From positions 47,352-111,351 of IMG/VR virus record IMGVR_UViG_3300029249_000109: a DNA stretch of 64,000 bases, one strand, 5' to 3'. Under the pieces are notes generated by a model. The model did no database searches. It was not told where the DNA came from and saw only the letters and a program-made list of their open reading frames with translations. The translations under genes and the position numbers were made by a program. Positions 6,271-63,352 of this stretch are shown piece by piece (position 1 is the stretch's first letter; each line of letters opens with the position of its first letter). This stretch comes from a virus.

Positions 6271-6478
6271 GAAGAACCTCCATTCTGTGCAACGTCTCTT
6301 TTTCACATTCCTTGCAAAATACAAACCTCATATCATTTTGGATGTTTTTCAATTCATCCCATTTATATTGTGCAATGCTATGATACCATCCGCATTTTTG
6401 ACAACGAATCCCAACTTCTGTAATATCGTTTCCTTTCATATCGAAAAGTCTTAGTTCTAATAGCTTGAATTTCATCAT
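6263..6478 (-). CDS. Zinc-ribbon protein
   Basis: 71 aa containing CQKCGW...CKECEKE. Confidence 0.5.
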   Translation of the reverse strand: MMKFKLLELRLFDMKGNDITEVGIRCQKCGWYHSIAQYKWDELKNIQNDMRFVFCKECEKETLHRMEVLHV

Positions 6479-9042
6479 TTCACTCTTGCCTCGTAAATTC
6501 TCGGTTCAGCCAAACTATATCGTTGACCAAGGTATTCATACTTGCCATTCGGATCGTGAACTGGCAACTGTACGGGAACTGGTTTGATATTTTCAACTAC
6601 GCCAGCGCCAGCCATGTGCCACAAGAATTTTTTGAACTTGTTGGGGTATTTTTCATAGCACAGCACGACTAGAATATTAGCCAACTCACGAACGTCGGGG
6701 CAGATCAGCTTGCACTTGTTACGATACACGTTATAGATTGCTTGCCAGTTGGTTTCATAGGTCTTTGCTTCTTCTTTCGTCATGATGCCTTCAAGCTCTT
6801 TACGATAAAGTTTCCAGTTTTTGGCTTTCTTTTCTAGTTCTAACTGATTCTTGCGATATTTATTAAAGTCCAGAAAGACGGCTTCGATCTCATCAAATAC
6901 ATCTTGATCATAACCGATTTCCGAATCGTACATTATGTGCCAATCAAAACTGCCAGCGGGCTCTTTATGCCAACGGACTCCACGCTCCCAACGCTCAAGA
7001 TCCATACAAAGAAGATTCATATTACTATGTGCATTACTAAGATTATGTTGCCGTGCATAATAGGGTCCAGCATATTTCATAAATCTAGGCAATGGACGGC
7101 CATATGATGCTATATTTCTAGGAACTGAAAATTTCACTCCTGTTTTAGAAAAATCAATTTCTTTACCCATACAGATACTCAAAATATCTATATAGTTTTC
7201 GTACTCTTTTTTTGTTTTTTCTGTTGTTGCAACCTTATTGTGAAACGCACATCCGTAATTAGCATACTCGCCAATTTGGCTTTTTAATCCACGTAAAACA
7301 CAATCAAGCCGATTTTGTAAATTATCTAATTGAGCAAGCGCAGTGATTTTATCTTGAGTATCGCAGACAATTCTTGCGTTTCTGTCAATACCTTTTAGCA
7401 TAATATCAGAATCAATTACCAGCACGAGATCCCCATCGAAATCCGCGCCATTTAATCTCTGTGGGGTAATTGACTTTACGTTTATCATTGCTACATTTTC
7501 AAGATGACTACAATACTTTTGAGTGAGTTCGTTATTAACACCTTTTAGGACTGCATGTTCTGCAGACGCCAAATGAGGGTTTCGATCCACTACACGCCAT
7601 CCAGATGCCGCACCTCTTCTGTCAAAAGTATAAAATTCATCAGATTCAAGACATCCAACAATCGGAAGACCAGCAGCTCCTTCCATGAATGCAATTAAAT
7701 CAGGTGCTAAAAACTTATATGTAGCATCAAGAAATAATTTTCCACATTTAAAATCATTTCTATATTTATCAAGAAGCGAATGAATATATGCTTTTACACT
7801 TGATTCATGTATCATTTCAGGATTTCGTGCAAGAGCCGCAGCATAGTGAGTTAATGGATTTACGTCGTCCGCCGTTAATCCTAAAAAACAATTTGTATGA
7901 AAAATTCCATCTTCAGTGTTAGAAGTGATTTTCTGATACCAATCAACGCTTTTATCTGCTAGGTGCTTAAACCCGTCATAAGGCAAATCCAACGTCACCA
8001 GTATCTGGTAATTGCTCCTTGTTTCAAGCGGTTCATTTTCAAATTGGTAGTTCCATTTTGCAACACCCATTGCATGGTTATATTTTAAAAGTAGTTGCTT
8101 ATATCTTTCCCAATCGGCAATAGTACCATCCCGTTTAAAATACTTGACGCCTTTAAACATGCTTTCTCCAGCAATAAACATTGGTTCGGCATCACGAGCT
8201 ACAGAATGCTTTACGCCCCAAATATCAGTGATTTCAGTAACGCCACGCTCTTCATAGAACGAAACGTAGTCCATTTCATTGAAAACACCCTTGAAATAAG
8301 GCATACGGAAAATCATGCTGCTGATATGTTCAGAAGTATTTAGCTTTTTTTCAATCTGCCGCATTAAAGAGGGATGAGCTATACCACAACCATCGAAGGC
8401 ATTGATTTCATAATTTATGGTATCTTCTTTAATATCTTTCTGTACCCATTCACGTTTTTTACCAGTCTTTTTGTCAACAAACTCCATTTTTTTATCACAG
8501 AGGCATTTGATTTTTTGATCTGGAATAGTGAGCATGTGATCTGGCACTACAATGATTTTTGGAAACCATTCATTAAGGGGAATACAATGACAACTTGACA
8601 TCATCAGCCCACGATAAGCCATCCATTTAGAAAGTACGACAGGTTTTTCAGAAAATGATACTTCCATACTGATTCGTCTATCAAGTTCAGGCCAAATATG
8701 AGATTCAACCATCGAGAAGATACATTGGCGAACCATGCTTGCGCTTCGTTCTCCAAAGTTAAATTTCCGCTTTCCAATTTTAGCTCCGTGTTGCATAAGA
8801 TGTTTAACCACATCGGGTTTATTTTGAGCACCTGTAGCGTCTATATAGATCAAAAACGGATTATAGTCAGAATCATCATGCGACACCAACCTAATCTGGC
8901 GAAGTAACATTGTATCAGATTGAAGTACTTGATATTGAATATCGTTTGCAACCTCTTCAGGAATATTAAAATTATATTTTATAAATAAACTCAAAGGGTA
9001 TTTACGTACTGTGTAATGCTTAGGAGAAAACATCTGTATCAA
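6475..9042 (-). CDS. Large protein carrying the catalytic Mg-binding motif of multisubunit RNA polymerases (NGADFDGDLVLV); candidate single-chain YonO-like double-psi beta-barrel RNA polymerase
   Basis: 855 aa. The motif NGADFDGD closely matches the universally conserved NADFDGD of the RNAP beta-prime subunit. The size is similar to YonO of SPbeta (about 840 aa). No other polymerase family motifs (DTD, DYSQIELR, T7-like) were seen. Confidence 0.4.
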   Translation of the reverse strand: MIQMFSPKHYTVRKYPLSLFIKYNFNIPEEVANDIQYQVLQSDTMLLRQIRLVSHDDSDYNPFLIYIDATGAQNKPDVVKHLMQHGAKIGKRKFNFGERSASMVRQCIFSMVESHIWPELDRRISMEVSFSEKPVVLSKWMAYRGLMMSSCHCIPLNEWFPKIIVVPDHMLTIPDQKIKCLCDKKMEFVDKKTGKKREWVQKDIKEDTINYEINAFDGCGIAHPSLMRQIEKKLNTSEHISSMIFRMPYFKGVFNEMDYVSFYEERGVTEITDIWGVKHSVARDAEPMFIAGESMFKGVKYFKRDGTIADWERYKQLLLKYNHAMGVAKWNYQFENEPLETRSNYQILVTLDLPYDGFKHLADKSVDWYQKITSNTEDGIFHTNCFLGLTADDVNPLTHYAAALARNPEMIHESSVKAYIHSLLDKYRNDFKCGKLFLDATYKFLAPDLIAFMEGAAGLPIVGCLESDEFYTFDRRGAASGWRVVDRNPHLASAEHAVLKGVNNELTQKYCSHLENVAMINVKSITPQRLNGADFDGDLVLVIDSDIMLKGIDRNARIVCDTQDKITALAQLDNLQNRLDCVLRGLKSQIGEYANYGCAFHNKVATTEKTKKEYENYIDILSICMGKEIDFSKTGVKFSVPRNIASYGRPLPRFMKYAGPYYARQHNLSNAHSNMNLLCMDLERWERGVRWHKEPAGSFDWHIMYDSEIGYDQDVFDEIEAVFLDFNKYRKNQLELEKKAKNWKLYRKELEGIMTKEEAKTYETNWQAIYNVYRNKCKLICPDVRELANILVVLCYEKYPNKFKKFLWHMAGAGVVENIKPVPVQLPVHDPNGKYEYLGQRYSLAEPRIYEARVK

Positions 9043-22164: not shown

Positions 22165-22781
22165 AGTGATTTCCAGAAATCTCCTATATACATAACAAAG
22201 TCGCGGATGATATCATAACAAAAAGTATTCGCAGAGGGAACTCCGGTAGTACAACAGCTGTGCTGCCGGGGTTTAATGCGGCTGCGGGTTCTGCAGAGCC
22301 TGTACTGGTCCCAAGCCCAGAACGCGAGCAGCGTAAACAGAAGGGCGCTCCACCGCTCTAGTGAAATTTGATTTGATTTTGAAGCAAAGGCCACGCGGAT
22401 AAATCAATGATAAAAGTAAACTAGAGGGTGTTACTTGAAGTGAGCGAAACTAAACGAAAGGAGGGTTTATAGCTTGAATTGTAAAATCAGTTACCGCTCG
22501 CTAGGAGTGGTCTTTGGTGCAGGAGTCGCGTCTTGCTCCACTGAGCGAAATTTCATGGGATGGCGATACAAGCTGTTCTGACACGCAGCGGCTGAAATTT
22601 TTCAAATTAAATAGAATTAACGCTGTAAGTGATCGTTGCATCCGAATAAGCGCACACATACATACGAGATCGACGGGAGTCGCAACTAGGCATAATCGAC
22701 CCGTAAGTCTCTTATAGAGCTGGGTGGTTCCCGAACGGACAAGTTGACCGTATGTTAAGGAGTTTTCAGAAACCGGGCGAC

Positions 22782-27657: not shown

Positions 27658-27736
27658 TTTACTTCTTCTGTTAATAATCACGATTGACATCTGCTCGTGG
27701 ATGTGCTAATCTAGTCGTGCAAACAGAAGAAGTAAA
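27658..27736 (+). promoter_or_regulatory. Promoter (TTGACA-17-TAATCT) bracketed by a perfect 15-bp inverted repeat of the recurring motif (TTTACTTCTTCTGTT ... AACAGAAGAAGTAAA)
   Basis: Arms at 27658-27672 and 27721-27736; -35 at 27684-27689; -10 at 27707-27712. Lies upstream of the antirepressor-like gene. Confidence 0.5.
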
Positions 27737-27752
27737 TGAGAAAGAGGAAAAA

Positions 27753-29153
27753 ATGAATGCTAAAGTAGAAAACACGTTGGTGCTGGCGGATACAAAAAAA
27801 TTCGGCACACTCGACATTCGGGTCTATGAGAATCCGGCGGTCGATCACACCAGAGTTCAGGATGATTTCTGGATGACACGTGAGCAGATCGGCTTGGCGT
27901 TGGAATATAAGAATCCTTCAATTTCGATTGGAACGATTCATAAGCGCAATGCCAAGCGTCTTGACCCGCTTTCAGGGTTAATCAATTTGATTACCCCTGG
28001 CGGAAAACAGCAAACCTACGTATATAATATGCGTGGCGTCATGGAAATCTGCCGTTACAGCACTCAGCCCAAAGCAGATGCCTTCATGGATTTCTGCTGG
28101 GATGTGATCGCCGCTCTGATGCGTGGTGAAACTGTATCACTGAAAGCCAATCAAGCTGAGCTCAAGCGGCAGGAGCGATTCGACCAGATGATTCAGACGC
28201 TGACGGAGATTCATTCCAAGATGGACGCTCTCGAAGCCGCCCGCCAGCAGGACCGCAACGCTCTCGACAATGTGCTGTTTGTCTGCAAGCAGCTGGAAAG
28301 AAAACTAAACGCAAATCAGCCGACGAAGCAGCCTGAGCAGACCACCACATCCACCACAAACGAAACCAACAAGGTTACATACAAAGGGCGTAGCGAATGG
28401 CGGACTGAGATTTATAAGCTCGGAAACTCTATCGCTCGCATGTCTGGCTCGACACTAAATGCGGTTCTGAAACAGGCTTATGATTATATCGGCCGCAACT
28501 ATGGCTGGTATTTCAAAGATGAGCGCCGGATGTATGTTGAGCGGGTTGGCTACAAAGGTGACATTAAGAACCTAAGCGGCCTGGATATCATCGAGGACAG
28601 CGAAACATGGAAGTCGATCTTTATGTCGATCATGAAGGATCGGTATGAGAACGAAAAGCATGACGCTGAGGCCCGAAAGGGGATTAAGTCGGCACTCACC
28701 AAGAAGCCGCCTATGATCCCTGCAGATATGATTCCTACTCGCCATAAATTTGAAGATTTCCCGCCTGTATTGTCTCCTGAAACTCCGGGCGGCGATGATA
28801 TCAAGGTTGTGGCAGAGGTTCAGGCGGTTGAAGTTGAAACACCGGCGGTCGAAGCTCCTGCGGTTAATGAGCCGAAAAAGGAGTCTCGTCGCTGCAATAC
28901 GAAAGTAAAAAGCATCACATTTCCAATTGTTGAGCCAATTGCCAAGAAACTAGGCGATAAGACGGTTGGATGTTGGATCACCTATGCAAAGATTTACGAC
29001 ACGATTGGCGTTGTCAAGATGGACCGAATGCGTAAAGCATATGTACGTTCTCACAATAAGCCGCCTAAGTGTACTCCTGATATCTTCCAATATTCTGACA
29101 AGAATATGAAAGTGTTTAAGGAGGCCGCAAAGATCGTGGCGGCATCAATCTAA
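27753..29153 (+). CDS. Phage antirepressor-like protein (Bro-N/ORF6N-type N-terminal domain)
   Basis: Start moved to MNAKVEN, which follows gagaaagaggaaaaa. N-terminus FGTLDIRVYENPAVDHTRVQDDFWMTREQIGLAL resembles Bro-N/KilA-N antirepressors. 466 aa. Confidence 0.55.
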   Translation: MNAKVENTLVLADTKKFGTLDIRVYENPAVDHTRVQDDFWMTREQIGLALEYKNPSISIGTIHKRNAKRLDPLSGLINLITPGGKQQTYVYNMRGVMEICRYSTQPKADAFMDFCWDVIAALMRGETVSLKANQAELKRQERFDQMIQTLTEIHSKMDALEAARQQDRNALDNVLFVCKQLERKLNANQPTKQPEQTTTSTTNETNKVTYKGRSEWRTEIYKLGNSIARMSGSTLNAVLKQAYDYIGRNYGWYFKDERRMYVERVGYKGDIKNLSGLDIIEDSETWKSIFMSIMKDRYENEKHDAEARKGIKSALTKKPPMIPADMIPTRHKFEDFPPVLSPETPGGDDIKVVAEVQAVEVETPAVEAPAVNEPKKESRRCNTKVKSITFPIVEPIAKKLGDKTVGCWITYAKIYDTIGVVKMDRMRKAYVRSHNKPPKCTPDIFQYSDKNMKVFKEAAKIVAASI

Positions 29154-29821
29154 GCTATCTACTTCCTCCATGGCCCTTGGGGCTGACAGCCGGGAAAGAC
29201 CGGCATATAACCAGGTGTGGCGAAGTTGGTATCGCGCTAGTTTTGGGAACTAGAGACCGTGGGATCGTGCCCCACCACTTGGACCATAGCACAAGGCTTT
29301 CCTTTCTCCTTGTGCAAAATTAAACGACTTGTCCTTCTCTTTTTTGCTGTGTGTTGGTTGACAATCTTTTGGACTAAGTTGCGTGGCTGAAAATGCCTGG
29401 CAGGTACGATAACCCTGCTTTTATATGGAGCCGATGGTCGTACAACAGTTCGATTCTGTTGGGTTCCAGCTAGGTTCGATGCGACAGCGTAGTGTAGTGC
29501 GAGGTCGCTGGGTGGCGCAATTCCACCGTGGATGCAATGCATTCATAACGCTCTGACCGAAAATAATAACCATGATGCAACGGGAGTAGCTACCTGCCAT
29601 AGTGAATGTGCATGGCTCTGTTATGAGTAGGCGAATATGGCACTGCCTGCGTAAGTGGCATAGATGCTCGGTGCCCAGAGTATCGGAGAGAGTATTTAAA
29701 AGGGCAGTCTTTGAGGATGGACACCAAAGGTCGTGAGGCATTAGCCGCTTTGGTTGTATCCACTGATGCTGTAAGTTGCATTTCGCAAAGTTCGTAAGTC
29801 GAATGCAATGCACTCAGCTGG

Positions 29822-29850
29822 TGTCGTTACATGGTTAAATCCTCCTCTCT
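29822..29850 (+). repeat. 29-bp direct repeat (copy 1) immediately 5' of an atypical tRNA
   Basis: tgtcgttacatggttaaatcctcctctct; the second copy at 30221-30249 differs by one base. Confidence 0.6.
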
Positions 29851-29942
29851 GGGACGTTAGCTTAGTTGGTTAAAGCTCCTGGCTCATAACCGGGTAATGA
29901 GGATAACACCTCACGGGGGTTCGAATCCCTCACGTCCCACCA
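29851..29942 (+). tRNA. tRNA with anticodon CAU (Met/Ile2-type) carrying an unusually long variable arm (about 20 nt)
   Basis: Manual fold: acceptor gggacgt/acgtccc, A73, encoded CCA, D-arm tagcttagttggttaaagc (elongator Met-like), anticodon stem cctgg/ccggg with loop ctCATaa, variable hairpin tgagg-ataaca-cctca, T-loop ttcgaat. Confidence 0.55.
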
Positions 29943-30220
29943 TTGTATAAAAATACACAAAAAATGAATAAAGAGGTGAAAACAATGAAACGATATCTTG
30001 TAGGCGTATTTACAAGTCAGTCGTATTTTAAATGGATTGATGCCCGAAGATGAGGCTAAAAACTCGCTGAGGATGCCTGGGAAAACAACAATATGAATCA
30101 TGGATGCGACGAAGAAATTTCCGAAATCTACGTTGTGGAAGACGAAGATGAGTAAAGGAGTAACCTATGAAGGAACATATTTGCGCGGTATGAGTTCGTC
30201 AGCCGTTTGCTCCTTGCCAA

Positions 30221-30249
30221 TGTCGTTACATGGTTAAATTCTCCTCTCT
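30221..30249 (+). repeat. 29-bp direct repeat (copy 2) immediately 5' of an atypical tRNA
   Basis: tgtcgttacatggttaaattctcctctct. Confidence 0.6.
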
Positions 30250-30333
30250 TATGCCGGTATCGCTCAGCGGCTAGAGCACTGGGTTTATACCCCTTGGTCC
30301 AGATAAGACAGAGGCGCGGGTTCGAGTCCTGCT
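30243..30333 (+). tRNA. tRNA-like gene with canonical acceptor, D and T arms but an aberrant anticodon region (possible UAU anticodon on a weak stem, or a 14-nt loop) and a 13-20-nt extra region
   Basis: Acceptor gccggta/taccggc, A73, encoded CCA, D-stem gctc/gagc, T-arm gcggg-ttcgagt-cctgc. Between them, ctgggtttataccccttggtccagataagacagaggc does not form a standard 5-bp stem with a 7-nt loop. Confidence 0.35.
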
Positions 30334-30375
30334 ACCGGCACCATTTTAGTAACATTTTGAAAGAAGGTATGAATC

Positions 30376-30630
30376 ATGGCAAATCTGAATATCAAAGAAA
30401 TCGTTGAATGGATGATTGAAAAAGCGAAAGATAAGGCTTCCGATAGCATCGCAGTCATTGATGAAGGAGAAATCGTTAAAGAGTTCGGAGTGGAGTCTGG
30501 ATGGCTTCAGAGCCATGGTCCAGAGATTTATCACGAGTGTGATCAGCACTCAGAAGTTTTGGACTCTTTGATTTACACTGGAAACGATAGAGATTATTGG
30601 TCTATTCAGTTTACTATTAACAAGGAGTAA
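30376..30630 (+). CDS. Hypothetical protein
   Basis: RBS gaaagaaggtatgaatc. Confidence 0.5.
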   Translation: MANLNIKEIVEWMIEKAKDKASDSIAVIDEGEIVKEFGVESGWLQSHGPEIYHECDQHSEVLDSLIYTGNDRDYWSIQFTINKE

Positions 30631-30636
30631 ATTAAA

Positions 30637-31329
30637 ATGGATGACAAATATCTCAGCATCATCACGAACTTCGGTTGCCATTACAGCTGCCCTGAGTGTA
30701 TCGTCCGCAATAACAATCTTAAGATGACGCAGACAGAAGAGTATTCTTCCTATATGCAGTTGGAGCATGTTCTGAAAAACGAATGTAATGACTGCAATTG
30801 GGTGTCTGTGTCTGGTGGCGGTGACCCACTGTATCACTGGTGGGAACATCAGGCGTGGTGGACAGGATTCTTTTCGGTGTGTAAAGAACTTGGTCGCAAG
30901 ATTGAGTTACATACGAGCTATTATGATTTTGGTCATGATGATGGAATTTTAATGTTCCCATTCGAACGGTTTGATAGAGTTGTGTATCATTTGCATTGTG
31001 CAGAGGAGCTTTACCAGATTTGTCGCCGGGGGAAAGAAATCGTTCGAGTAGTATTCGTTGTGGACGATTCTATGGACGAATACGAAGTTAGCAAGATTTC
31101 AGCTATTGTTCAAGAAAGCGACGATATCGACGAGCTTACATTCCGGCAGTATGTAGATGAAAACTACAAAGAAACCTATCATCTGCACGGCCTCATGCTG
31201 GCGGGGCATAAAAAGGCTTGGTGGTATGTAACTCAGCGCGATTACAACACCTACTATCATAACGGTAAACTGTTCACGAAGTATACCGATATCTTTGATT
31301 CTGAGGTGGTAAGTCATGAAAAAACATAA
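30637..31329 (+). CDS. Radical SAM enzyme (QueE/NrdG-like small radical SAM)
   Basis: GCHYSCPEC is the CX3CX2C signature; VSVSGGGDPL is a GGE-type SAM-binding motif. 230 aa. Confidence 0.65.
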   Translation: MDDKYLSIITNFGCHYSCPECIVRNNNLKMTQTEEYSSYMQLEHVLKNECNDCNWVSVSGGGDPLYHWWEHQAWWTGFFSVCKELGRKIELHTSYYDFGHDDGILMFPFERFDRVVYHLHCAEELYQICRRGKEIVRVVFVVDDSMDEYEVSKISAIVQESDDIDELTFRQYVDENYKETYHLHGLMLAGHKKAWWYVTQRDYNTYYHNGKLFTKYTDIFDSEVVSHEKT

Positions 31330-31552: not shown

Positions 31553-32464
31553 ATGAAGAAGTTCAAAAAGATTTTCGTGGTTTCGTGTGCAATTGTGATG
31601 GCGATGACCTTTACGGGGTGTACCAAGAAAGAGGTGTATACAATTGAACCTCATGAAACTGCATTTCTGATTTCACTCTCTGAGGGCGGGGGAAAACAGG
31701 CGTCCTTTGAGAGTGAGGCAATGCTCGCCGAGGCAAAGGTAGCAGCCAAGCAGGTGTATATTACTTACTCGAAGCGACATCTGTCGCCGACTGACATCAT
31801 TGGTACTTGGGTTCCGGATAATATGTTGGTCGTCGTCAATAGAACTCCTGTTACTCGTGAATGGTCCGAGGGCAAGGATAGTGGCACCAGCACTGTCAAC
31901 CAGTCCATCTCTGCCGAAAGCAAGGAGTCCATTGGCTTCTCCGTCGGTATGAACTGCTCTGCTCAGATCTACACTGAAAATGATGCAGTCAAGTTCCTGT
32001 ATTCCTACAACAACAAGCAGCTCTCCGAGATTATGGATACTGAAATCCGTGCTCGTGTTGAAGCTGACTTTGTTGAGATGTGCGCCAAGTACACCATGAA
32101 TGAGATCCTTGAGAAGAAGGCCGAGATCATGGAGTATGTTCGCAAGGATGTGACTGAGTATTTTGCAGAGCGCGGTATCACGATTACTGTCCTTGGCATG
32201 AAGGATGGCATTGAGTACGACGATGCGTCTGTTCAGGCTGCTATTAACAAGTCCTTTGTGGCCGAGCGCAATGACGAAGCGCAGGAGATTGAGAATCAGA
32301 CCAAGATTTCCAAGGCGAACGCAGAAGCCGAGGCGAATAAAATCATCTCTGAGTCTCTGACTGACCGGCTGATTCAGCAGCAGATGTATGAAAAGTGGGA
32401 TGGTAAGCTTCCTACTTATGTCGGCGGTGATGCCAGTATCCCTGTACTGAACGATATGAAGTGA
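31553..32464 (+). CDS. Lipoprotein with an SPFH/band-7 (stomatin/prohibitin/HflC-like) domain
   Basis: Lipobox AMTFTGC. SPFH-like region with coiled-coil (...NEILEKKAEIMEYVRKDVTEYFAERGITITVLGMKD...AEAEANKIISESL). Confidence 0.6.
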   Translation: MKKFKKIFVVSCAIVMAMTFTGCTKKEVYTIEPHETAFLISLSEGGGKQASFESEAMLAEAKVAAKQVYITYSKRHLSPTDIIGTWVPDNMLVVVNRTPVTREWSEGKDSGTSTVNQSISAESKESIGFSVGMNCSAQIYTENDAVKFLYSYNNKQLSEIMDTEIRARVEADFVEMCAKYTMNEILEKKAEIMEYVRKDVTEYFAERGITITVLGMKDGIEYDDASVQAAINKSFVAERNDEAQEIENQTKISKANAEAEANKIISESLTDRLIQQQMYEKWDGKLPTYVGGDASIPVLNDMK

Positions 32465-32553
32465 CCCCGTCGGGACGGAGACGTTAAACCCGTGTCCTGA
32501 GATCAACACAAGATCTAAAAACTGTGTGGCAGCTCGGAAAGACGAGCAAGTAT

Positions 32554-32636: not shown

Positions 32637-32756
32637 TGGGTGAGTTGCGTCGCCCAAAAATCTCCTTTTCCTCACAAATGCTTAGTGGCTCATGGGTTCC
32701 AGACATGAATCACCGTGACTGAACAAGTCGTAGCAGGTACGCAATCCTGCTTTTGA

Positions 32757-39379: not shown

Positions 39380-40615
39380 ATGTACGTTACTTATTGGAAT
39401 CCACCGAGAACAAGGCAGATTACGTTTGACGAAATCCTTAGCGGAGTCGTTGATGTGAATCAGTTGAAATATGCTGGCGATGAAACTTCTACTCGAACCG
39501 TACAGCGCGAGGGTTTGAATGATCGTTTAGTGGCTATCACAAATGTCACTAGTATGATCACACAGCTGACGGAATTTAATCAGAAATATGCTCGTCTTGA
39601 AGCAGTACATGACCTGTCGACGTATTACTACCACTTTGAAATCCCTAAGAAAACTGGTGGATTTCGACCGATTGATGCCCCGACAAACGAACTGAGTGAT
39701 GCGTTGGTTGAGTTGCGGACGCTATTAAAAAGTTTCATGATTGCTGATTATCACACGGCAGCACACGCATATATCAACGGGCGCGGCACTCTGAGTGCGA
39801 TTAAAAAGCATCAGGCGGGGCACAGATATACAGTAAAAGATCGCGAAACTGGAAAAGAAAAGATCGTCACTTATGAAAATAACTGGGCTGTCAAGTTTGA
39901 CTTTCATGGATTCTTTCCGAGTTCCACTCCTGAGTTTATCTACGGTATGTTCAGCAAGATTTATCCGTTTTCTCTTATTATGAAAGATCGAAATGGATAC
40001 AACCAGCTGACTAAAGCGATGCGCTTGTGCTTCTTGAACGGCGGTCTTCCGCAGGGAACGCCAATCAGTCCGTGGATCACGAACGTTATGATGATCCCGT
40101 TTGATTATATGTTAAACAAGAAGCTTTCTTACAAATATACCATGAAAGACGGCATTTCTCGCACTTTTACATATACCAGATATGCAGACGATATCACTAT
40201 CAGTTGTTATCTGAGTTTTGACCCGATGGAAATGCAGGATATTATCAAAGAGACGTTGGATGCAATCAATGCTCCGTTTACTTTGAATGAAGAAAAAACG
40301 CATTATGGCAATCGGCATTCGAGCGAAAACTGGATGCTCGGTCTGATGTGGAACGCCAATAACGATATCACAGTTGGATGGCGTAATTTTAAGGACTTCA
40401 AGAAGATGGCATCTAATTACATCGTCTGCAAGAAAGAAGGAAAAACGTGGGATCTTGAAGACCTGCAGCAGTTTAATGGCAAGTTGAATTACTACCGTAT
40501 GGTTGAAAAAGAATCAGTTGATGCGGTAATCTCTCGATACAATGAAAAATATCGTGTTGACATGATGGCAATGCTCAAAGCTGACTTAAAACCAAAAGAA
40601 GGAGTTGTTTTCTAA
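39380..40615 (+). CDS. Reverse transcriptase (retron/Abi/UG-like bacterial RT, RT domain only)
   Basis: KKTGGFRPIDAP (RT motifs 1/2), TAAHAYINGRGTLSAIKKH (matches the Ec86 retron DAAHGFVPGRSIITNAKKH region), LNGGLPQGTPISPWITNVMM (motif B, QGxxxSP) and YTRYADDITIS (YADD catalytic motif). Confidence 0.85.
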   Translation: MYVTYWNPPRTRQITFDEILSGVVDVNQLKYAGDETSTRTVQREGLNDRLVAITNVTSMITQLTEFNQKYARLEAVHDLSTYYYHFEIPKKTGGFRPIDAPTNELSDALVELRTLLKSFMIADYHTAAHAYINGRGTLSAIKKHQAGHRYTVKDRETGKEKIVTYENNWAVKFDFHGFFPSSTPEFIYGMFSKIYPFSLIMKDRNGYNQLTKAMRLCFLNGGLPQGTPISPWITNVMMIPFDYMLNKKLSYKYTMKDGISRTFTYTRYADDITISCYLSFDPMEMQDIIKETLDAINAPFTLNEEKTHYGNRHSSENWMLGLMWNANNDITVGWRNFKDFKKMASNYIVCKKEGKTWDLEDLQQFNGKLNYYRMVEKESVDAVISRYNEKYRVDMMAMLKADLKPKEGVVF

Positions 40616-48150: not shown

Positions 48151-48303
48151 ATGAAATTTAATAAAGAAGAAATCTATAACGCACTTGATATTCTGACTTG
48201 TCAAATCCAAGAGTCTGACGAGCTCGGATGGTGTTGTAAGCAGGAACTGAAAAATGTCCTTGACGATTACTTCCGACTAATTGAAAAGGAGAATATGAAA
48301 TGA
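48151..48303 (+). CDS. Small hypothetical protein (50 aa) between the Prs-like and NAMPT-like genes
   Basis: RBS gggatgaggattgat; ATGA overlap with the downstream gene. Confidence 0.4.
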   Translation: MKFNKEEIYNALDILTCQIQESDELGWCCKQELKNVLDDYFRLIEKENMK

Positions 48304-49778
48304 TCAATATTAACCCGATGCTGCTGTGTGACTTTTACAAGACAACGCACAGTAAGCAGTTTCCGGCCGGCACTACCAAGCTGGTCAGTTACTTCACGCC
48401 TCGTATGAGTCGGTTGGATGGCGTGGATGAAGTTGTTGTGTTTGGCGTTCAGGCATTTTGCAAGGATTATCTGGTGCAGTATTTCAACGACAACTTTTTC
48501 GACGAACCAAAAGAAATGGTCGTTCCTCAGTATAAGCGATATCTGGATGCGACCATTGGTAAGGATGCTTACGATCTGAGCAAGATTGCAGCGCTACATG
48601 ATCTGGGATATCTTCCTGTTGAAATCAAGGCACTGCCAGAAGGCACTCGTTGCCCCATCCATGTGCCGTTCCTTGAGATGAGCAATACGCACCCTGATTT
48701 CGCATGGGTTCCGCAGTTCCTTGAATCCTTTATGAGCTCTGAGCTGTGGCATCCGATGATTTCTGCAACGGTCGGAACTCTGTATCGCGATATCGTGGAC
48801 AAGTATTACGATGAAACAGTGGAGGATGGCGTGCCACATGCTCGTGCTCTGGGTGATTTCAGTTTCCGTGGTCAGGAGTGTATGCAGTCGGCAGTTAAGT
48901 CAAGCGCCGGTTGGTGCTTGAGCTTTCTGAATACGGCTACTGTCCCTGCGATTCCGTATCTGGAAGAAATGTATCGTTGCAATTGTGAAGAAGAGCCCGT
49001 TGCATTCGGCGCTGTTAGTACCGAGCATAGTGTGATGTGTTCCAACTTCGCAGTCGATGGCGATGAGATCACTTTCATCCGCCGGGCGCTGACTGAGCTG
49101 TATCCCAATATGAATTTCAGCATGGTGTCTGACTCCTACGACTATTGGAATCTGGTTGATAACATTCTACCGCAGCTCAAGGATGAGATCATGGCACACA
49201 ATGGCACACTGCTGATTCGTGGCGATTCTGGCGACCCGGTCGAAATTGTTACGCAGACGGTTTATCATCTGTGGGATATCTTCGGCGGCACGGTCAACAG
49301 CAAGGGTTATAAGGTGCTCGACCCTCATGTAAAGGCTCTGTATGGCGACTCTATCACTGTGCAACGCTGTGAAAAGATTTATGCCGAGCTCAAAGCACAC
49401 GGTTTTGCCTGCAACAATGTCAGTCTTGGCGTTGGTTCTTTCTCCATGCAGTGCATCGAGCAGAATGGTCAGTTGAAGCCGTTCACTCGCGATACTTTTG
49501 GCATGGCAGTCAAGGCAACTTATGGCGTGGTCAATGGCAAGGAGATTCAGATCTTCAAGGACCCCAAGACCGACACCGATCACTTTAAGAAGAGTCTGAA
49601 GGGTATGTGTTATGTCACTAAGGATGATTCTGGAAAGCTGGTTTGTACTGATGGCCTGATGGATCACGCTGCTCATTCTGACGGAAACATGCTGCAGCCT
49701 GTATTCCGCAATGGCGCGATGATTAAAGAATACAGTTTGAAGGAAGTCCGCGACCGACTGTGGGGAGGGAAGTTCTGA
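48300..49778 (+). CDS. nadV: Nicotinamide phosphoribosyltransferase (NAMPT/NadV)-like enzyme; candidate nicotinamide-ADPR transferase
   Basis: 492 aa of NadV-like length. The N-terminus MININPMLLCDFYKTTHSKQFP resembles phage NadV proteins. Confidence 0.65.
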   Translation: MININPMLLCDFYKTTHSKQFPAGTTKLVSYFTPRMSRLDGVDEVVVFGVQAFCKDYLVQYFNDNFFDEPKEMVVPQYKRYLDATIGKDAYDLSKIAALHDLGYLPVEIKALPEGTRCPIHVPFLEMSNTHPDFAWVPQFLESFMSSELWHPMISATVGTLYRDIVDKYYDETVEDGVPHARALGDFSFRGQECMQSAVKSSAGWCLSFLNTATVPAIPYLEEMYRCNCEEEPVAFGAVSTEHSVMCSNFAVDGDEITFIRRALTELYPNMNFSMVSDSYDYWNLVDNILPQLKDEIMAHNGTLLIRGDSGDPVEIVTQTVYHLWDIFGGTVNSKGYKVLDPHVKALYGDSITVQRCEKIYAELKAHGFACNNVSLGVGSFSMQCIEQNGQLKPFTRDTFGMAVKATYGVVNGKEIQIFKDPKTDTDHFKKSLKGMCYVTKDDSGKLVCTDGLMDHAAHSDGNMLQPVFRNGAMIKEYSLKEVRDRLWGGKF

Positions 49779-50251
49779 TGGCTGGTGTAATCAAAGAAGG
49801 CAACGTATTTGATTCTGACGCAGATATTATTTGCCATCAGGTGAATTGTCAGGGTGTAATGGGATCAGGCGTTGCTAAAGAAGTTCGCGAACGGTTTCCG
49901 AATGTGTATGAGGAATATCACACTTACTGCGAAACCAACAAGGACTATCCGGGACGAATGCTTGGTATCGCTCAGATGGTGCCAGTCGATGAAAAAGGTT
50001 CACGATGGATCATCAATTGTTTTGGTCAGAACAGTTATGGATATGACGGAAAGCAGTACACGTCTGTTGGCGCACTGATGGAGGCATTTCAAGAAGTTGC
50101 AAAATTCGCTAAGATGACTGGAACTAAAGTGGCTATGCCATATGGAATCGGCTGTGTTCGTGGTGGTGCTGATTGGGAGACCGTCAAGAAGATCATTGAT
50201 GTTACATTTCAAGACGTAGATGTTGAGCTATGGAGATTGAAGGAGAAGTAA
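49778..50251 (+). CDS. Macro domain protein (ADP-ribose / O-acetyl-ADP-ribose binding or hydrolase)
   Basis: ADIICHQVNCQGVMGSGVAKEV fits the macro-domain core NAAN...GGGV. Start coupled to the NAMPT stop (tgATGg). Confidence 0.65.
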   Translation: MAGVIKEGNVFDSDADIICHQVNCQGVMGSGVAKEVRERFPNVYEEYHTYCETNKDYPGRMLGIAQMVPVDEKGSRWIINCFGQNSYGYDGKQYTSVGALMEAFQEVAKFAKMTGTKVAMPYGIGCVRGGADWETVKKIIDVTFQDVDVELWRLKEK

Positions 50252-50252
50252 T

Positions 50253-51011
50253 ATGCGCAATTATGAATTTGATGCATCAAAGACAAAAGATGAAATCATT
50301 ACGTGGATTCGGAATTATTTCCGCAAGAATGGTCCTGACTGCAATGCTGTGGTTGGTATTTCTGGCGGCAAGGATTCCAGTATTGTGGCAGCTTTGTGCT
50401 GTGAAGCGCTTGGTAATGGTCGAGTGATCGGCGTTCTGATGCCGCAGGGGGTGCAGGACGACATTGATGTAGCGCGGGATCTGGTCAAGCATCTGGGTAT
50501 CAAGTCGTTCGAGGTCAATATTGCGGAAACTGTGAATGCGTTACTGGCTAGGGGTCGAATTGCTGGTCTGTGTGATTCCAAGCAGGCTCGTGTAAATCTG
50601 CCGGCACGAATCCGTATGGCAACCCTGTTCATGGTATCTCAGAGTATGAATGGGCGGGTAGCGAACACCTCTAATTTTTCGGAGGACTATGTTGGATTTG
50701 CCACTCTTTTTGGAGACGGAGCTGGTCAGTTTAGCCCTCTTGGCAAGCTAACTGTTACCGAAGTAAAGGCTATCGGTCGTGAACTGGGTCTCCCTGAAAA
50801 GTTTATTGAGAAAGCACCTGCTGATGGTCTGACCGGTAAGACTGATGAAGACAACTTCGGCTTTACCTATGATTTCCTTGACAAGTATATCCGTACTGGA
50901 GATTTCGGGGGCGATACTGCAACCGCAGCCAAGATTGATCGGATGCATGATGCAAACACGTTCAAGCTATTGCCGATGTCGGTATATAATTCAAACCCGT
51001 TTGACTGGTGA
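50253..51011 (+). CDS. nadE: NH3-dependent NAD+ synthetase (NadE)
   Basis: VVGISGGKDSSIVAAL is the PP-loop SGGxDS signature. Confidence 0.75.
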   Translation: MRNYEFDASKTKDEIITWIRNYFRKNGPDCNAVVGISGGKDSSIVAALCCEALGNGRVIGVLMPQGVQDDIDVARDLVKHLGIKSFEVNIAETVNALLARGRIAGLCDSKQARVNLPARIRMATLFMVSQSMNGRVANTSNFSEDYVGFATLFGDGAGQFSPLGKLTVTEVKAIGRELGLPEKFIEKAPADGLTGKTDEDNFGFTYDFLDKYIRTGDFGGDTATAAKIDRMHDANTFKLLPMSVYNSNPFDW

Positions 51012-51034
51012 GTCTAATTAAGGAGGATTTAGCA

Positions 51035-51604
51035 ATGGAAAAGACAAAAGTCGATATCTTGGTTGTTGTTGATATGCAGAACGATTTCGTAACCGGCGCT
51101 CTTGGTACTCCTGAAGCTCAAGCTATTGTGCCAAAGGTTGTGAAGAAGATCAAAGGCTGGAGCGGTAAGGTTCTGTATACCAGAGACACTCACCATGAAA
51201 ACTATCTCGAAACTCAGGAAGGTAAACATCTCCCTGTGAAGCACTGTTTAGAGGAGACGTGGGGGTGGCAGTTGATCGATGAGGTTGACGCGACAATCAC
51301 TGACGAGATGTGGGAATCTGACAATCCCATCTACGACAAAGAAGTGTTCGGCTCTTATTATATGATGCAGGACTTACGAGAAACTCTTCTTTGGTATTCT
51401 GACGTGGAAATTAACTCAATCACACTGGTCGGACTTTGCACGGACATCTGTGTTATCTCCAATGCAATTATGCTGAAGAATGTGCTCCATGAGGTTCCTA
51501 TCATTGTGGATGCAAGCTGCTGTGCTGGTGTAACTCCTGAGTCTCATAAGAACGCACTGGCTGCCATGAAGATGTGTCAGATTGAAATTGTAAACGAGGA
51601 ATAA
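51035..51604 (+). CDS. Isochorismatase-family cysteine hydrolase, likely nicotinamidase (PncA-like)
   Basis: VVVDMQNDF and LVGLCTDICV (catalytic Cys). RBS aaggaggatttagca. Confidence 0.65.
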   Translation: MEKTKVDILVVVDMQNDFVTGALGTPEAQAIVPKVVKKIKGWSGKVLYTRDTHHENYLETQEGKHLPVKHCLEETWGWQLIDEVDATITDEMWESDNPIYDKEVFGSYYMMQDLRETLLWYSDVEINSITLVGLCTDICVISNAIMLKNVLHEVPIIVDASCCAGVTPESHKNALAAMKMCQIEIVNEE

Positions 51605-56193: not shown

Positions 56194-56306
56194 TGAATTA
56201 TATTTTGAGATTATTATCTCGATTTATTGATTTCTGCCTTGATTGGGCATGGTTAATTGTTCCGATTTGGGCATTTTGTTTTATTGCTGTGATGTTAATA
56301 ATCTAA
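56190..56306 (+). CDS. Small membrane protein (38 aa)
   Basis: Translates to MMNYILRLLSRFIDFCLDWAWLIVPIWAFCFIAVMLII; ATGA coupling. Confidence 0.35.
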   Translation: MMNYILRLLSRFIDFCLDWAWLIVPIWAFCFIAVMLII

Positions 56307-56326
56307 AGCGTAAAAAGGTGGTAAAA

Positions 56327-57130
56327 ATGACACGAGAAGAATTACAACGTATCATTGCGAGTGAACCGTATGATTTTCTACGTACTGATCCTCACCTTGG
56401 TAAGCATTTGATGTTTCTGACTATTGGCGGCAGCCATGCTTATGGAACGAATGTAGCAGGATCAGATGTTGATATTCGCGGTGTCGCTTTGAACTCCAAA
56501 GAGGATCTACTCGGGTTGGGTGAGTTTGAACATCATGTAGATACGGTGACGGATACAACGGTATTTAGTTTCAATAAAGCTGCGAAGTTATTGTGTAGCG
56601 GGAATCCAAACATGTTAGAACAACTCGGTAACGCAGATGAACTAGTTATCGATTATCATCCTACTACTAGACTGTTGACGGAAAATAAAAATTTATTCCT
56701 GTCGAAAAGGGTAATCTATTCATTTGGTGGATTTGCAGGAAAGCTGATCAAAGAAGCAGATGCTAAATGGCGTGCGTACCTGTATGAAGTTGAAGAATCT
56801 GGCGTGAATCCAAATGTTAAACCGTATATTCCATATGGAGAAAAACGTTTCAATAAGACTGTAATGAATGCGATTCGTTTATATCATATGTTGTTTGACA
56901 TTTTAGAAAAATGTGAAATCAACACTTATCGTGGGGCCGAGCACGATGTTTTGATGCAGATTCGAAACAGTGACTACGACTATGAAGAGTTGCGTAACCA
57001 TGTGATTCCTGTGTATGAGGCTAGACTGCAAGTTGACAAAAAGGAAAGTGAATTGCCAAATCACGTCAATATGAAGTTGGTCAATGAGTTAGTTGCGGCT
57101 ATCAATGAGCAGGCGCTAAAGGTGGTGTAA
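56327..57130 (+). CDS. Pol-beta-superfamily minimal nucleotidyltransferase (KNTase/Lnu/ANT-like)
   Basis: LTIGGSHAYGTNVAGSDVDIRGV fits G[GS]x9-13Dh[DE]h. RBS aaaggtggtaaaa. Confidence 0.6.
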   Translation: MTREELQRIIASEPYDFLRTDPHLGKHLMFLTIGGSHAYGTNVAGSDVDIRGVALNSKEDLLGLGEFEHHVDTVTDTTVFSFNKAAKLLCSGNPNMLEQLGNADELVIDYHPTTRLLTENKNLFLSKRVIYSFGGFAGKLIKEADAKWRAYLYEVEESGVNPNVKPYIPYGEKRFNKTVMNAIRLYHMLFDILEKCEINTYRGAEHDVLMQIRNSDYDYEELRNHVIPVYEARLQVDKKESELPNHVNMKLVNELVAAINEQALKVV

Positions 57131-63210: not shown

Positions 63211-63352
63211 ACGTATAACGAATACAGGTCAAAGAATATTAAAATCCATGAGTTTGTGTTTGTGGATCAATTACGTAAGTCCCGTCGTTTACCACATGGC
63301 TGATAAATGGTGAACGCCTTGGCAGGGGCGTAACAATACCTGCCGTTTATAT

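Follow-up and report, generated by a model that had tools for sequence, protein, structure and literature searches.

A repeat preceding two phage tRNA genes is the 3' strand of a structured RNA adjoining candidate AUA-decoding tRNAs with extra hairpins

Phage tRNAs are regarded as a codon supply and as an escape from host nucleases that target tRNAs, and the tRNA island of a phage may also contain structured RNAs, as is the case for the stable RNAs species 1 and 2 of T4. Bacteria have two known routes to the decoding of AUA, i.e. tRNAs with the anticodon CAU and tRNAs with the anticodon UAU; AUA decoders of the tRNA-Ile(UAU) type occur in Mycoplasma mobile and in a Bacillus subtilis tilS suppressor. 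The known examples of tRNA-Ile(UAU) and of the lysidine-containing tRNA-Ile2(CAU), whose elongator body is recognised by TilS and IleRS and not by MetRS, are ordinary tRNAs of 76-77 nt. Among the larger RNAs, ROOL and GOLLD are strongly covarying molecules of several hundred nucleotides and unknown function, located by or between phage tRNA genes, and in some cases tRNAs are embedded in or adjacent to GOLLD (PMC12286853, PMC5737381). Departures from the ordinary tRNA shape have also been described. Class II tRNAs (Leu/Ser/Tyr), nematode nev-tRNAs (PMC3333845) and allo-tRNAs (PMC5389517, PMC7609411) bear a long hairpin 3' of the anticodon arm, and nev-tRNAs as well as 8/4 allo-tRNAs often have UAU or other non-Leu/Ser anticodons. 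The tRNAs with a shortened, 4-bp anticodon stem, for which effects on decoding have been proposed, break the 5-bp rule close to the hinge, at the upper end of the stem (PMC13092985). Furthermore, the non-canonical tRNA introns of archaea and nucleomorphs are short insertions (3-25 nt) away from position 37/38, within stems included, whose removal restores the tRNA, and which need a bulge-helix-bulge or related motif and a splicing endonuclease (PMC4090602).

The locus described here lies in the tRNA island of a human-gut phage of ~75-150 kb, and was analysed within a stretch of 64,000 nt (positions 47,352 to 111,351 of IMG/VR record IMGVR_UViG_3300029249_000109), hereafter called the window, whose own numbering is used throughout. 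The relatives of the phage RNA polymerase indicate that the hosts are probably Bacillota, and among the relatives are phages of Thomasclavelia and Enterocloster. A search of GTDB genomes for host prophages with an 18-mer of the leader returned 3 matches, of which the one inspected (L026) had an unrelated context; as ~17 chance matches are expected in that collection, all 3 were taken as chance. All features given below, the tRNA genes and the main flanking ORFs (27684-29153, 30376-30630, 30637-31329 and 31553-32464) are on the + strand. The order of the locus is conserved: tRNA-Pro is followed by a tmRNA or tmRNA-like minihelix, by a structured RNA of ~380 nt, and finally by one or two tRNA cassettes. 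The tRNA-Pro(UGG) called by ARAGORN at 29211-29286 forms the conserved upstream edge. The minihelix at 29427-29468 consists of an acceptor stem and a T arm (GGAGCC...AACAG-TTCGATT-CTGTT...GGTTCC-A, no CCA), and is preceded by the same hairpin and TATAT as the real tRNAs. ARAGORN called no tmRNA in the window, and called a full tmRNA at the position of the minihelix in 8 relatives. The minihelix shares with tmRNA (ssrA) an acceptor-like stem, a T arm and the site, but it is 42 nt long and lacks the tag reading frame, the pseudoknots and the CCA. Between the first tRNA cassette and the second repeat copy, a spacer (29943-30220) contains tiny ORFs, e.g. 29976-30044, which show substitutions of the synonymous type between relatives.

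The first-pass annotation had noted a 29-bp direct repeat ahead of two tRNA genes, and this repeat is indeed present at 29822-29850 (copy 1) and 30221-30249 (copy 2). The copies differ by a single mismatch, C in copy 1 and T in copy 2 at position 20; with up to 3 mismatches allowed, the window contains just these two, versus 0 expected. The zero spacing between repeat and tRNA holds for copy 1, which ends at +1 of tRNA1, but not for copy 2, which is followed by 3 nt (TAT, 30250-30252) before tRNA2 begins. The similarity of the copies also continues for ~40 nt upstream of the 29 nt first noted. In the RNAalifold consensus of 49 related gut-phage sequences, repeat nucleotides 1-10 (TGTCGTTACA) pair with TGTATCCAC at 29755-29763, nucleotides 11-17 (TGGTTAA) are unpaired, nucleotides 18-23 (ATCCTC) pair with GAGGAT at 29713-29718, and nucleotides 24-29 (CTCTCT) pair with GGAGAG at 29685-29690; the 5' partner strands therefore extend over 29685-29763, with a hairpin at 29699-29712. 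These helices are 99.4% paired across the sequences versus 44-57% when the partner is slid, and the minimum-energy fold of the single sequence contains the same helices. Compensatory changes are seen at repeat positions 3, 5 and 19, the columns being 602 (A-U/G-C, 21:26), 608 (C-G to U-A, five times) and 623 (A-U to G-C, three times). Since helix H1 (GGAGAG/CUCUCU) never varies, its support is limited to energy and consistency. The repeat therefore supplies three helices within a larger structured RNA with their 3' strand, and has no free-standing leader role: the proposal of a shared 5' leader was right about the position, but the covariation shows that the repeat is conserved because it has to pair with upstream segments, rather than as a linear signal.

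The RNA to which the repeat belongs occupies 29469-29850, between the minihelix and tRNA1, with a putative 5' boundary. Its consensus has 89 pairs, which are 99.5% paired versus ~40% when slid, and 20 of them show compensatory changes. It contains no long ORF, and an Rfam search with it, the ROOL and GOLLD models included, found no relevant family at E<=10. A CCA/UGG pairing proposed by RNAalifold (columns 500-502 with 614-617) is thought to be wrong, because the CCA sits in a local hairpin that itself covaries (CCAAAG/CUUUGG, CAUAAG/CUUAUG and CUAGG/CCUAG). Compared with ROOL and GOLLD, this RNA is shorter, matches no model, comes directly after a tmRNA or minihelix, and stops exactly where a tRNA begins. 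A second, diverged copy of its 3' domain lies at 30063-30249, ahead of tRNA2; it scores 25 bits (rough E 6e-5) with the covariance model R1 versus 160.8 bits for copy 1, matches clearly in sequence over the final ~70 nt only, and has weak structural support from 4 near-identical sequences. Two repeat copies are present in the window because a duplication took in the final ~70 nt of the RNA along with a second tRNA cassette.

The first of the two tRNAs, tRNA1, is as it had been annotated: ARAGORN and Rfam place it at 29851-29942, with the anticodon CAU (29885-29887), A73 and a variable arm of 20 nt. It is of the elongator type, called Met(CAU) by ARAGORN, and apart from the long variable arm its cloverleaf is canonical, with G1-C72, an encoded CCA, an uninterrupted 5-bp anticodon stem, a 7-nt loop, U33 and a purine at 37. 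The variable region (29895-29914) forms the stem TGAGG/CCTCA (29898-29902 with 29909-29913) around the loop ATAACA. The stem covaries while the loop is free: relatives have UGAGG/CUUCA and UGAGG/CCUCA with differing loops, and one allele (L154) has UGAGAU-GAAA-AUCUCA. Although the long arm at positions 44-48 is that of class II, CAU is not an anticodon of Leu, Ser or Tyr, and in contrast to class II, nev- and allo-tRNAs, tRNA1 combines the arm with CAU and with a core of class I, which has a 4-bp D stem and the 7/5 acceptor/T arrangement. Apart from this arm, nothing favours the earlier suggestion that tRNA1 is an identity-switched Met tRNA.

The second tRNA is also a real gene, but its coordinates had been set 10 nt too low, at 30243-30333; tRNA2 occupies 30253-30343 and is called Ile(UAU) by ARAGORN, with the anticodon at 30286-30288. 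It has a 7-bp acceptor stem, a 4-bp D stem, a 5-bp T stem, A73 and CCA. The middle region had been described as unable to form a normal anticodon stem-loop. The 3-bp-stem and 14-nt-loop folds on which that description relied are possible, but a normal 5-bp stem with an interruption fits better: C27-G, U28-A, G29-C41, G30-C40 and G31-C39, broken between 41 and 42. The interruption is a 16-nt insertion, TTGGTCCAGATAAGAC (30294-30309), in the 3' strand of the stem, which forms the hairpin GTC-CAGATAA-GAC; its boundary is uncertain by 1 nt because there is a C on each side. When the 16 nt are removed, a perfect tRNA-Ile(UAU) cloverleaf of 75 nt is obtained by both minimum-energy folding and ARAGORN, with the variable loop AGGC and G15/C48; the junction then reads GGGTTTATACCCC joined to AGAGGCGCGGG, as opposed to ...ACCCCTTGGTCC... 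with the insert kept. The loop of the insert, CAGAUAA, is one base from CUGAUAA, the anticodon loop of tRNA-Ile(GAU). With the Rfam model RF00005, tRNA1 scores 60.0 and tRNA2 51.7 bits versus a gathering threshold of 29; in both alignments 17 nt are inserted following the anticodon arm, and two pairs of the tRNA2 anticodon stem are flagged as non-standard. Standard calls by such tools had been named as grounds for dropping the anomaly; both genes are called with good scores, but only with ~16-17 nt treated as an insertion. As the extra arm of tRNA2 leaves at 41/42 and not at positions 44-48, tRNA2 has no class II arm; it also has all five pairs available, with the hairpin between pairs 3 and 4, whereas in the 4-bp-stem tRNAs the top pair is unpaired. 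Both phage tRNAs are 7/5, and neither 8/4 nor 9/3 as in the allo-tRNAs; both also have GG in the D arm, a TTCRA loop on the T stem, and a discriminator followed by CCA.

All tRNA2 copies recovered have the insert unchanged; they come from three phage lineages, two of which are without the leader. In L297, an allele from the lineages without the leader, both the acceptor and the D stem carry compensatory changes. In the second lineage, tRNA2 is the first gene after a TTGACA-17-TATAAT promoter and heads an array in which Ile(GAU) and Met(CAU) tRNAs are present as well, and no AUA reader other than tRNA2. A scan of metagenomes for relatives of tRNA2 with another middle region gave identical copies and unrelated intron-bearing tRNAs only; BLAST of tRNA1 and tRNA2 against GenBank phages gave nothing informative, and a viral pattern scan for TTTATAC-N8-16-CAGATAA was too unspecific to inform. 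The complement of the insert is absent elsewhere in the window, and in the literature consulted we found no counterpart of a hairpin within the anticodon stem of an AUA-reading tRNA. A linkage of tRNA2 to the adjacent 230-aa CxxxCxxC protein (phrog_17662, unknown function) was considered, and was rejected since the protein is missing at the loci of the other lineages.

The occupants of the slot behind the structured RNA bear on decoding. Of 64 pattern matches to the leader one was left out as a chance match; in the 63 genuine unique contexts the repeat adjoins a CAU tRNA 47 times and tRNA2 16 times. The slot thus holds a CAU tRNA, the UAU tRNA2 or both, and the CAU bodies are many and interchangeable. 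These are the anticodons of tRNA-Ile2 and tRNA-Ile(UAU), here alternating in one slot, but unlike those ordinary tRNAs the phage tRNAs have extra hairpins, and their identity is predicted. Judging from its canonical tRNA-Ile(UAU) core, tRNA2 plausibly decodes AUA. For tRNA1, which has the Ile2-relevant features CAU and G1-C72, AUA decoding is possible in view of the equivalence of the slot, and the alternation of CAU and UAU is suggestive of an Ile2 nature of the CAU tRNAs. The check on AUA codon usage that had been proposed gave no strong signal and is not decisive: AUA makes up 8-19% of the Ile codons, and is moderate everywhere.

Taken as a whole, the account that we consider likely is that the repeat is the 3' end of a structured RNA abutting AUA-decoding tRNAs, with a cut by RNase P at the junction. 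The tRNA island would be transcribed as a single precursor, and RNase P would cut at the 5' end of the tRNA; the tRNA would thereby be freed, and the structured RNA would be left with a base-paired 3' end that resists exonucleases. Alternatively, the helix beside the cleavage site may slow the cut. The CAU anticodon of tRNA1 would read AUA after lysidine formation by the host TilS, the UAU of tRNA2 would read it directly, and the extra hairpins would be retained in the mature tRNAs. A more far-reaching reading, in which the insert, constant over three phage lineages in spite of drift in the acceptor and D stems, is a functional, sequence-specific module, a new 'anticodon-stem arm', and at the same time the ~380-nt RNA is a new class that gates maturation by RNase P, is tentative and, for the two parts jointly, rather doubtful. 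Such an arm could recruit IleRS to the UAU tRNA, shield it against host anticodon nucleases, or be an excised phage mini-intron, and the RNA, as a class of its own among those of tRNA islands, could gate the RNase P maturation of AUA-decoding tRNAs.

It is unlikely that tRNA2 is no decoder at all, being instead a tRNA-like RNA (a decoy for nucleases that target tRNAs, an enzyme sponge or a primer) or a decaying pseudogene, with five arms of which two are small hairpins. The thermodynamic minimum of the full-length tRNA2 does consist of two side-by-side hairpins, GGGU-UUAU-ACCC and CUU.GUC-CAGAUAA-GAC.GAG, at -33.9 kcal/mol versus -25.5 for the interrupted-stem model. In the presumed anticodon loop, relatives furthermore show U33C, in at least 6 contigs, and A37G, in 1 contig; these changes keep the alternative fold (A37G gives U-G) while altering normally fixed positions, and because of them the earlier idea of a tRNA-derived regulatory RNA stays a candidate for tRNA2. 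However, the exact removal of 16 nt restores all canonical features, including the variable loop and G15/C48, compensatory change maintains the acceptor stem (3 pairs) and the D stem (1 pair) in the allele L297, and tRNA2 comes first after a consensus promoter in an array otherwise lacking an AUA reader. A pseudogene would not be expected to be invariant over three lineages.

As for the repeat, the most serious competitor to a strand of a structured RNA is a signal at the DNA level, either a tRNA promoter or a recombination or homing site for cassette swapping, which we regard as distinctly unlikely. A large variety of tRNA bodies is indeed found with an invariant leader on the 5' side and one of a few 3' flanks on the other, with junctions exactly at the tRNA ends, and by eye TGGTTAAAT bears a loose resemblance to an extended -10 element. 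On the other hand, a scan for sigma-70 promoters (-35/-10, 16-18-nt spacing) found no site overlapping either repeat copy, and no terminator was found in the repeat; at position 2 the putative -10 has a base other than A, and TCAAAT occurs as a variant of TTAAAT. Compensatory change between the repeat and positions far upstream is a signature at the RNA level. The conserved leader could still act as passive homology for cassette exchange.

There is very little to recommend the view that the 16-nt insert, and perhaps the hairpin of tRNA1 too, is a mini-intron removed after transcription to leave a normal 75-nt tRNA. We know of no bacterial enzyme for such tRNA splicing, and the host is probably a member of the Bacillota. 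The precise removal of the insert does yield a perfect tRNA, and the phage encodes an RNA-repair nucleotidyltransferase of the RlaP family. Moreover, median lengths of 12-25 nt and locations within stems are described for the non-canonical tRNA introns of archaea (PMC4090602). Nevertheless, by inspection of 30284-30315 no bulge-helix-bulge or hBH/HBh' motif, as defined for those introns (PMC4090602), could be drawn at the junctions, and close to the insert's 3' end there is nothing with which the exon sequence ahead of the 5' junction could form 4 bp. No insert-free tRNA2 allele was found in IMG/VR, and the hairpin of tRNA1 is at the normal position of a class II arm, with a freely variable loop.

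Two further readings of the repeat are highly improbable or worse. The repeat ends in a pyrimidine tail (AUCCUCCUCUCU) that might imitate the 3' end of 16S rRNA, with its anti-Shine-Dalgarno sequence, and act on mRNAs or ribosome factors, in that by eye AUCCUCCUCUCU is like GAUCACCUCCUUUCU and GTCGTTACATGG is like GTCGTAACAAGG, which we take to be 16S rRNA sequence. This idea is weakened because the 5' part of the repeat varies, its GTCGT covarying with the partner, and because the consensus structure has every base of the tail paired; in variants, CCUCC is changed to CUUCU, CAUCC or UUUCU. Scarcely credible is a function of the complementary strand, where the window reads AGAGAGGAGGATTTAACCATGTAA and where an SD-ATG-TAA mini-ORF had been proposed, as a means of loading ribosomes or regulating antisense transcripts: L154 (GTACGG) as well as L016, L151 and L249 (TATATGGG) have lost the ATG, the tRNA genes and main flanking ORFs are all on the + strand, and the purine-rich, SD-like complement would simply mirror the partner strands GGAGAG and GAGGAU with which the pyrimidine tract pairs.

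These results mean that tRNA2 tolerates or needs a hairpin in its anticodon stem, one that is conserved base for base in unrelated gut phages; if tRNA2 works in translation, the limits of tRNA architecture would be widened, and a scaffold for engineering would be at hand. The ~380-nt RNA is a previously unclassified, strongly covarying RNA with a tmRNA or tmRNA remnant on one side and a CAU or UAU tRNA on the other, and offers a compact and tractable case for the role of large structured RNAs in phage tRNA islands, in which the exact junction of RNA and tRNA provides a direct and testable link to RNase P processing.

All 14 tRNA genes that ARAGORN predicted in the window lie on the plus strand. 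Two of them, Met(CAU) at 29851-29942 (+; tRNA1) and Ile(UAU) at 30253-30343 (+; tRNA2), score 60.0 and 51.7 bits, respectively, with the Rfam tRNA model (gathering score 29), which bears out the existence of both genes as proposed in the first-pass annotation, although the second had been placed 10 nt too low. In the alignment to the Rfam model, 17 nt are inserted past the anticodon arm of both tRNAs, and two pairs of the tRNA2 anticodon stem are flagged as non-standard. The 29-nt repeat lies at 29822-29850 (copy 1) and 30221-30249 (copy 2), the two copies differing by one mismatch; a search of all 64 kb that allowed up to three mismatches gave no others, against a chance expectation of none. 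Copy 1 directly abuts tRNA1, but TAT intervenes between copy 2 and tRNA2, so that the zero spacing formerly attributed to both pairs holds for the first only. A short GC hairpin followed by YWUAUAU is also seen immediately 5' of most tRNA genes of the window (29184-29210, 32520-32553, 32723-32756 and 63320-63352, among others), and possibly serves them in common as a leader or processing motif.

About 100 related IMG/VR loci, on contigs of 55-150 kb, were collected with three queries, i.e. an 18-mer of the repeat, a degenerate repeat core and a conserved downstream protein of 230 aa; a pattern based on tRNA2, scanned separately against metagenomes, yielded further human-gut contigs with the leader before tRNA2. 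Throughout, the order of genes is the same: tRNA-Pro(UGG), a region of 500-1300 nt almost without ORFs, the repeat and a tRNA. One of the 64 unique leader contexts matches by chance, and in each of the other 63 a tRNA begins 0-3 nt past the repeat. This slot is occupied by a CAU tRNA in 47 contexts (25 with long, 3 with intermediate and 19 with normal variable arms; at least nine different bodies by our count) and by the tRNA2 sequence in 16, and individual phages carry the CAU tRNA alone, tRNA2 alone or, as in the window, both. A search of 185,579 GTDB genomes with the leader 18-mer returned three matches, which we took as chance, since about 17 were expected and the single one inspected lay in an unrelated context; among GenBank phages one unannotated record alone matches the region. 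In three related loci (L187, L197 and L247), both the T loop (GUCAGGA) and the D loop (AAAGGAA) of the leader-linked CAU allele are non-canonical. All family members encode the 230-aa protein (30637-31329, +, in the window) a short distance downstream of the slot. It bears a CHYSCPEC motif (CxxxCxxC) in its N-terminal part, belongs to phrog_17662 and has no Pfam radical-SAM match. In locus L216, a 215-aa ORF, which may be a mobile endonuclease-type gene, is inserted between tRNA-Pro and the structured RNA described below, in an interval otherwise free of ORFs.

An alignment of 49 distinct versions of the tRNA-Pro-to-leader interval consists of invariant blocks separated by modules that vary in a hairpin-compatible manner. 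RNAalifold predicted 89 pairs, for which 99.5% of the alignment cells hold standard pairs, against 37-46% when the partners were slid by 1-3 columns, and 20 of the 89 pairs have changed on both sides; the interval thus contains a structured RNA, whose own span is about 29469-29850. The repeat supplies the 3' strand of this RNA: CUCUCU (29845-29850) pairs with GGAGAG (29685-29690) in the outermost helix, AUCCUC (29839-29844) with GAGGAU (29713-29718), and GUCGUUACA (29823-29831) with UGUAUCCAC (29755-29763) with two mismatches, while UGGUUAA (29832-29838) is unpaired. In the repeat helices and the two hairpins that they enclose, 99.4% of the cells pair, versus 44-57% when slid, and compensatory changes are found at repeat positions 3 (U-A in 21 sequences, C-G in 26), 5 (G-C to A-U in 5) and 19 (U-A to C-G in 3). 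The outermost helix is invariant across the alignment, and its support is therefore energetic alone; the single-sequence minimum-energy fold of 29675-29850 gives the same helix. A CCA/UGG helix in the RNAalifold output was distrusted, as the same CCA sits in a local hairpin with covariation of its own. The repeat is hence a shared 5' leader in position, as had been suggested, but it is itself the paired 3' strand of a larger RNA. The reading of its complement as an SD-ATG-TAA arrangement is not supported, the ATG being lost in several variants; the SD-like complement mirrors the purine strands with which the repeat pairs, and no sigma-70-like promoter or terminator was found to overlap the repeat. 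By eye, the unpaired UGGUUAA(A) has the same sequence as the D-loop/D-stem segment UGGUUAAA in tRNA1 (29866-29873), either by coincidence or as a possible tertiary-contact motif of the D-loop kind.

The similarity between the two copies extends about 40 nt upstream of the 29 nt. A covariance model built for the 3' domain, with 163 positions and 28 pairs, gives copy 1 a score of 160.8 bits and 30063-30247 one of 25 bits (rough E 6e-5); one further match (31626-31686, minus strand, 13.9 bits, rough E 0.045) was judged not credible. Copy 2 pairs at 6 of 6 positions in the window (GAGGAU/AUUCUC) and in the related locus L151 (AAGGAU/AUCUUU), and with one mismatch in each of two other versions. Its upstream partner strands are nevertheless poorly supported, because the 310-nt spacer exists in only four near-identical versions and part of it looks coding (a 22-codon ORF with synonymous-type substitutions). 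The most cautious interpretation is a duplication of the 3'-terminal ~70 nt of the structured RNA along with a tRNA cassette.

Upstream of the structured RNA, a 42-nt minihelix of acceptor stem and T arm (29427-29468) follows the same hairpin and UAUAU found before most real tRNAs of the window. Since eight relatives with a longer interval have a full tmRNA of 383-387 nt at exactly this site (L149, at 192-578 of the extracted interval, L001, L019, L157, L160, L170, L171 and L189; tag ANYNSYRCAA or ANNNSYRCAA), the minihelix looks like what is left of the tRNA-like domain of tmRNA, or like a substitute for it. In L001 and L171 an additional minihelix lies ahead of the tmRNA.

tRNA1 folds into a canonical cloverleaf: the D stem has 4 bp, the D loop contains GG and the T loop reads TTCGAAT. 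Its G1-C72 pair, next to discriminator A73, rules out an initiator, and elongator Met and Ile2 (lysidine) are both candidate identities. Within the 20-nt variable region lies a 5-bp hairpin, the stem of which is maintained among alleles while the loop changes (UGAGG-AUAACA-CCUCA, UGAGG-UUAAUU-CUUCA, UGAGG-UUGAUU-CCUCA and, in locus L154, UGAGAU-GAAA-AUCUCA); tRNA1 is thus a class I body with a class-II-like arm. Other alleles of the slot have ordinary 5-nt variable loops.

Neither of the two folds suggested earlier for tRNA2 is needed. Removal of 16 nt (TTGGTCCAGATAAGAC, 30294-30309) leaves 75 nt that form a perfect tRNA-Ile(UAU) by both minimum-energy folding (-31.7 kcal/mol) and ARAGORN, with the anticodon stem C-G, U-A, G-C, G-C, G-C, the anticodon loop UUUAUAC, the variable loop AGGC, and G15 and C48 in place. 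We therefore regard tRNA2 as canonical in build, interrupted between positions 41 and 42 by a small inserted hairpin (GUC-CAGAUAA-GAC). For the full 91 nt, nearest-neighbour folding gives another arrangement as the minimum, two adjacent hairpins at -33.9 kcal/mol, versus -25.5 kcal/mol for the interrupted stem. In the leader-bearing family tRNA2 is nearly invariant, the changes being C41U (G-U kept), A67G (U-G kept) and one in the D loop. Two further lineages have tRNA2 but no leader before it. One of them carries U33C; in the other, TTGACA-17-TATAAT precedes tRNA2 as the first gene, followed by an array of 15-18 tRNAs (in locus L265 including Ile(GAU) and Met(CAU)). The latter lineage has a second tRNA2 allele that differs at 9-10 positions, with both-sided changes in three acceptor pairs and one D-stem pair, A-U to G-U at pair 7-66 and a change at position 44, and with the anticodon arm, the 16-nt insert and the T arm all identical. 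One contig carries A37G. No insert-free tRNA2 allele was found in IMG/VR, no second copy or complement of the insert within the window, and nothing similar to tRNA2 among GenBank phages. In locus L297 (7300-9370; also L265 and L308), a tRNA 5' half (GGTTGTGTAGCTCAACAGGTAGAGTG...) directly follows tRNA2 and the next tRNA lies ~2 kb on, which may represent a tRNA split by a large intron. Furthermore, in metagenome contigs L272 (6793-6848), L276 and L292 (930-1086), tRNA-Lys(CUU)-like genes were seen with 10-12 extra nt directly 3' of the anticodon loop.

Long arms, sometimes with UAU anticodons, are known from class II tRNAs, nematode nev-tRNAs and allo-tRNAs (PMC3333845, PMC7609411), but unlike tRNA2 none of these has an arm within the anticodon stem, and neither tRNA1 nor tRNA2 has the 8/4 or 9/3 architecture of allo-tRNAs. 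Anticodon stems of 4 bp are frequent among bacteria (PMC13092985). The tRNA2 insert resembles archaeal non-canonical introns in size and position; these require a bulge-helix-bulge motif (PMC4090602), and none could be drawn at the insert. The structured RNA shares its setting with ROOL and GOLLD, large phage RNAs 'often near tRNA islands' (PMC12286853), but matches no Rfam family at E<=10, including ROOL, GOLLD, RNase P, T-box and tmRNA.

Other genes of the window are those for an RNA polymerase of the YonO/RdRP fold, a reverse transcriptase, NAD salvage (a cluster of NAMPT, Macro, NadE and nicotinamidase) and an RlaP-family nucleotidyltransferase of the RNA-repair type (these together at 6475-9033, -; 39380-40615, +; 48300-51604, +; and 56249-57130, +), as well as integrases. 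As the YonO-type polymerase is closest to Thomasclavelia, Enterocloster and SPbeta phage enzymes, the host is probably one of the gut Bacillota. A type-P5 twister ribozyme match was noted at 22230-22320 (+; 46.5 bits, Rfam gathering score 37.6).

Bacterial tRNA operons provide an established basis for a model of one precursor processed by RNase P. Because the tRNA genes and main flanking ORFs of the locus lie on one strand and its RNAs adjoin one another, the simplest model would be a single precursor cut by RNase P at every tRNA-like 5' end. Cleavage at 29850/29851 would free tRNA1 and leave the 3' end of the structured RNA tucked in a helix, a common RNA-stabilising device; or else a helix that extends to position -1 could hold back RNase P cleavage and so postpone maturation of the tRNA. 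The locus is real and unusual, and the functions considered here are proposals. The U33C and A37G variants leave a possibility that tRNA2 is not a conventional decoder, and codon usage is neutral, AUA making up a moderate 8-19% of Ile codons. CAU and UAU tRNAs are the two known bacterial solutions to the AUA codon, and as both alternate in one slot, we favour AUA decoding as the probable role of both, and for the CAU bodies of the slot consider it somewhat more likely than not.
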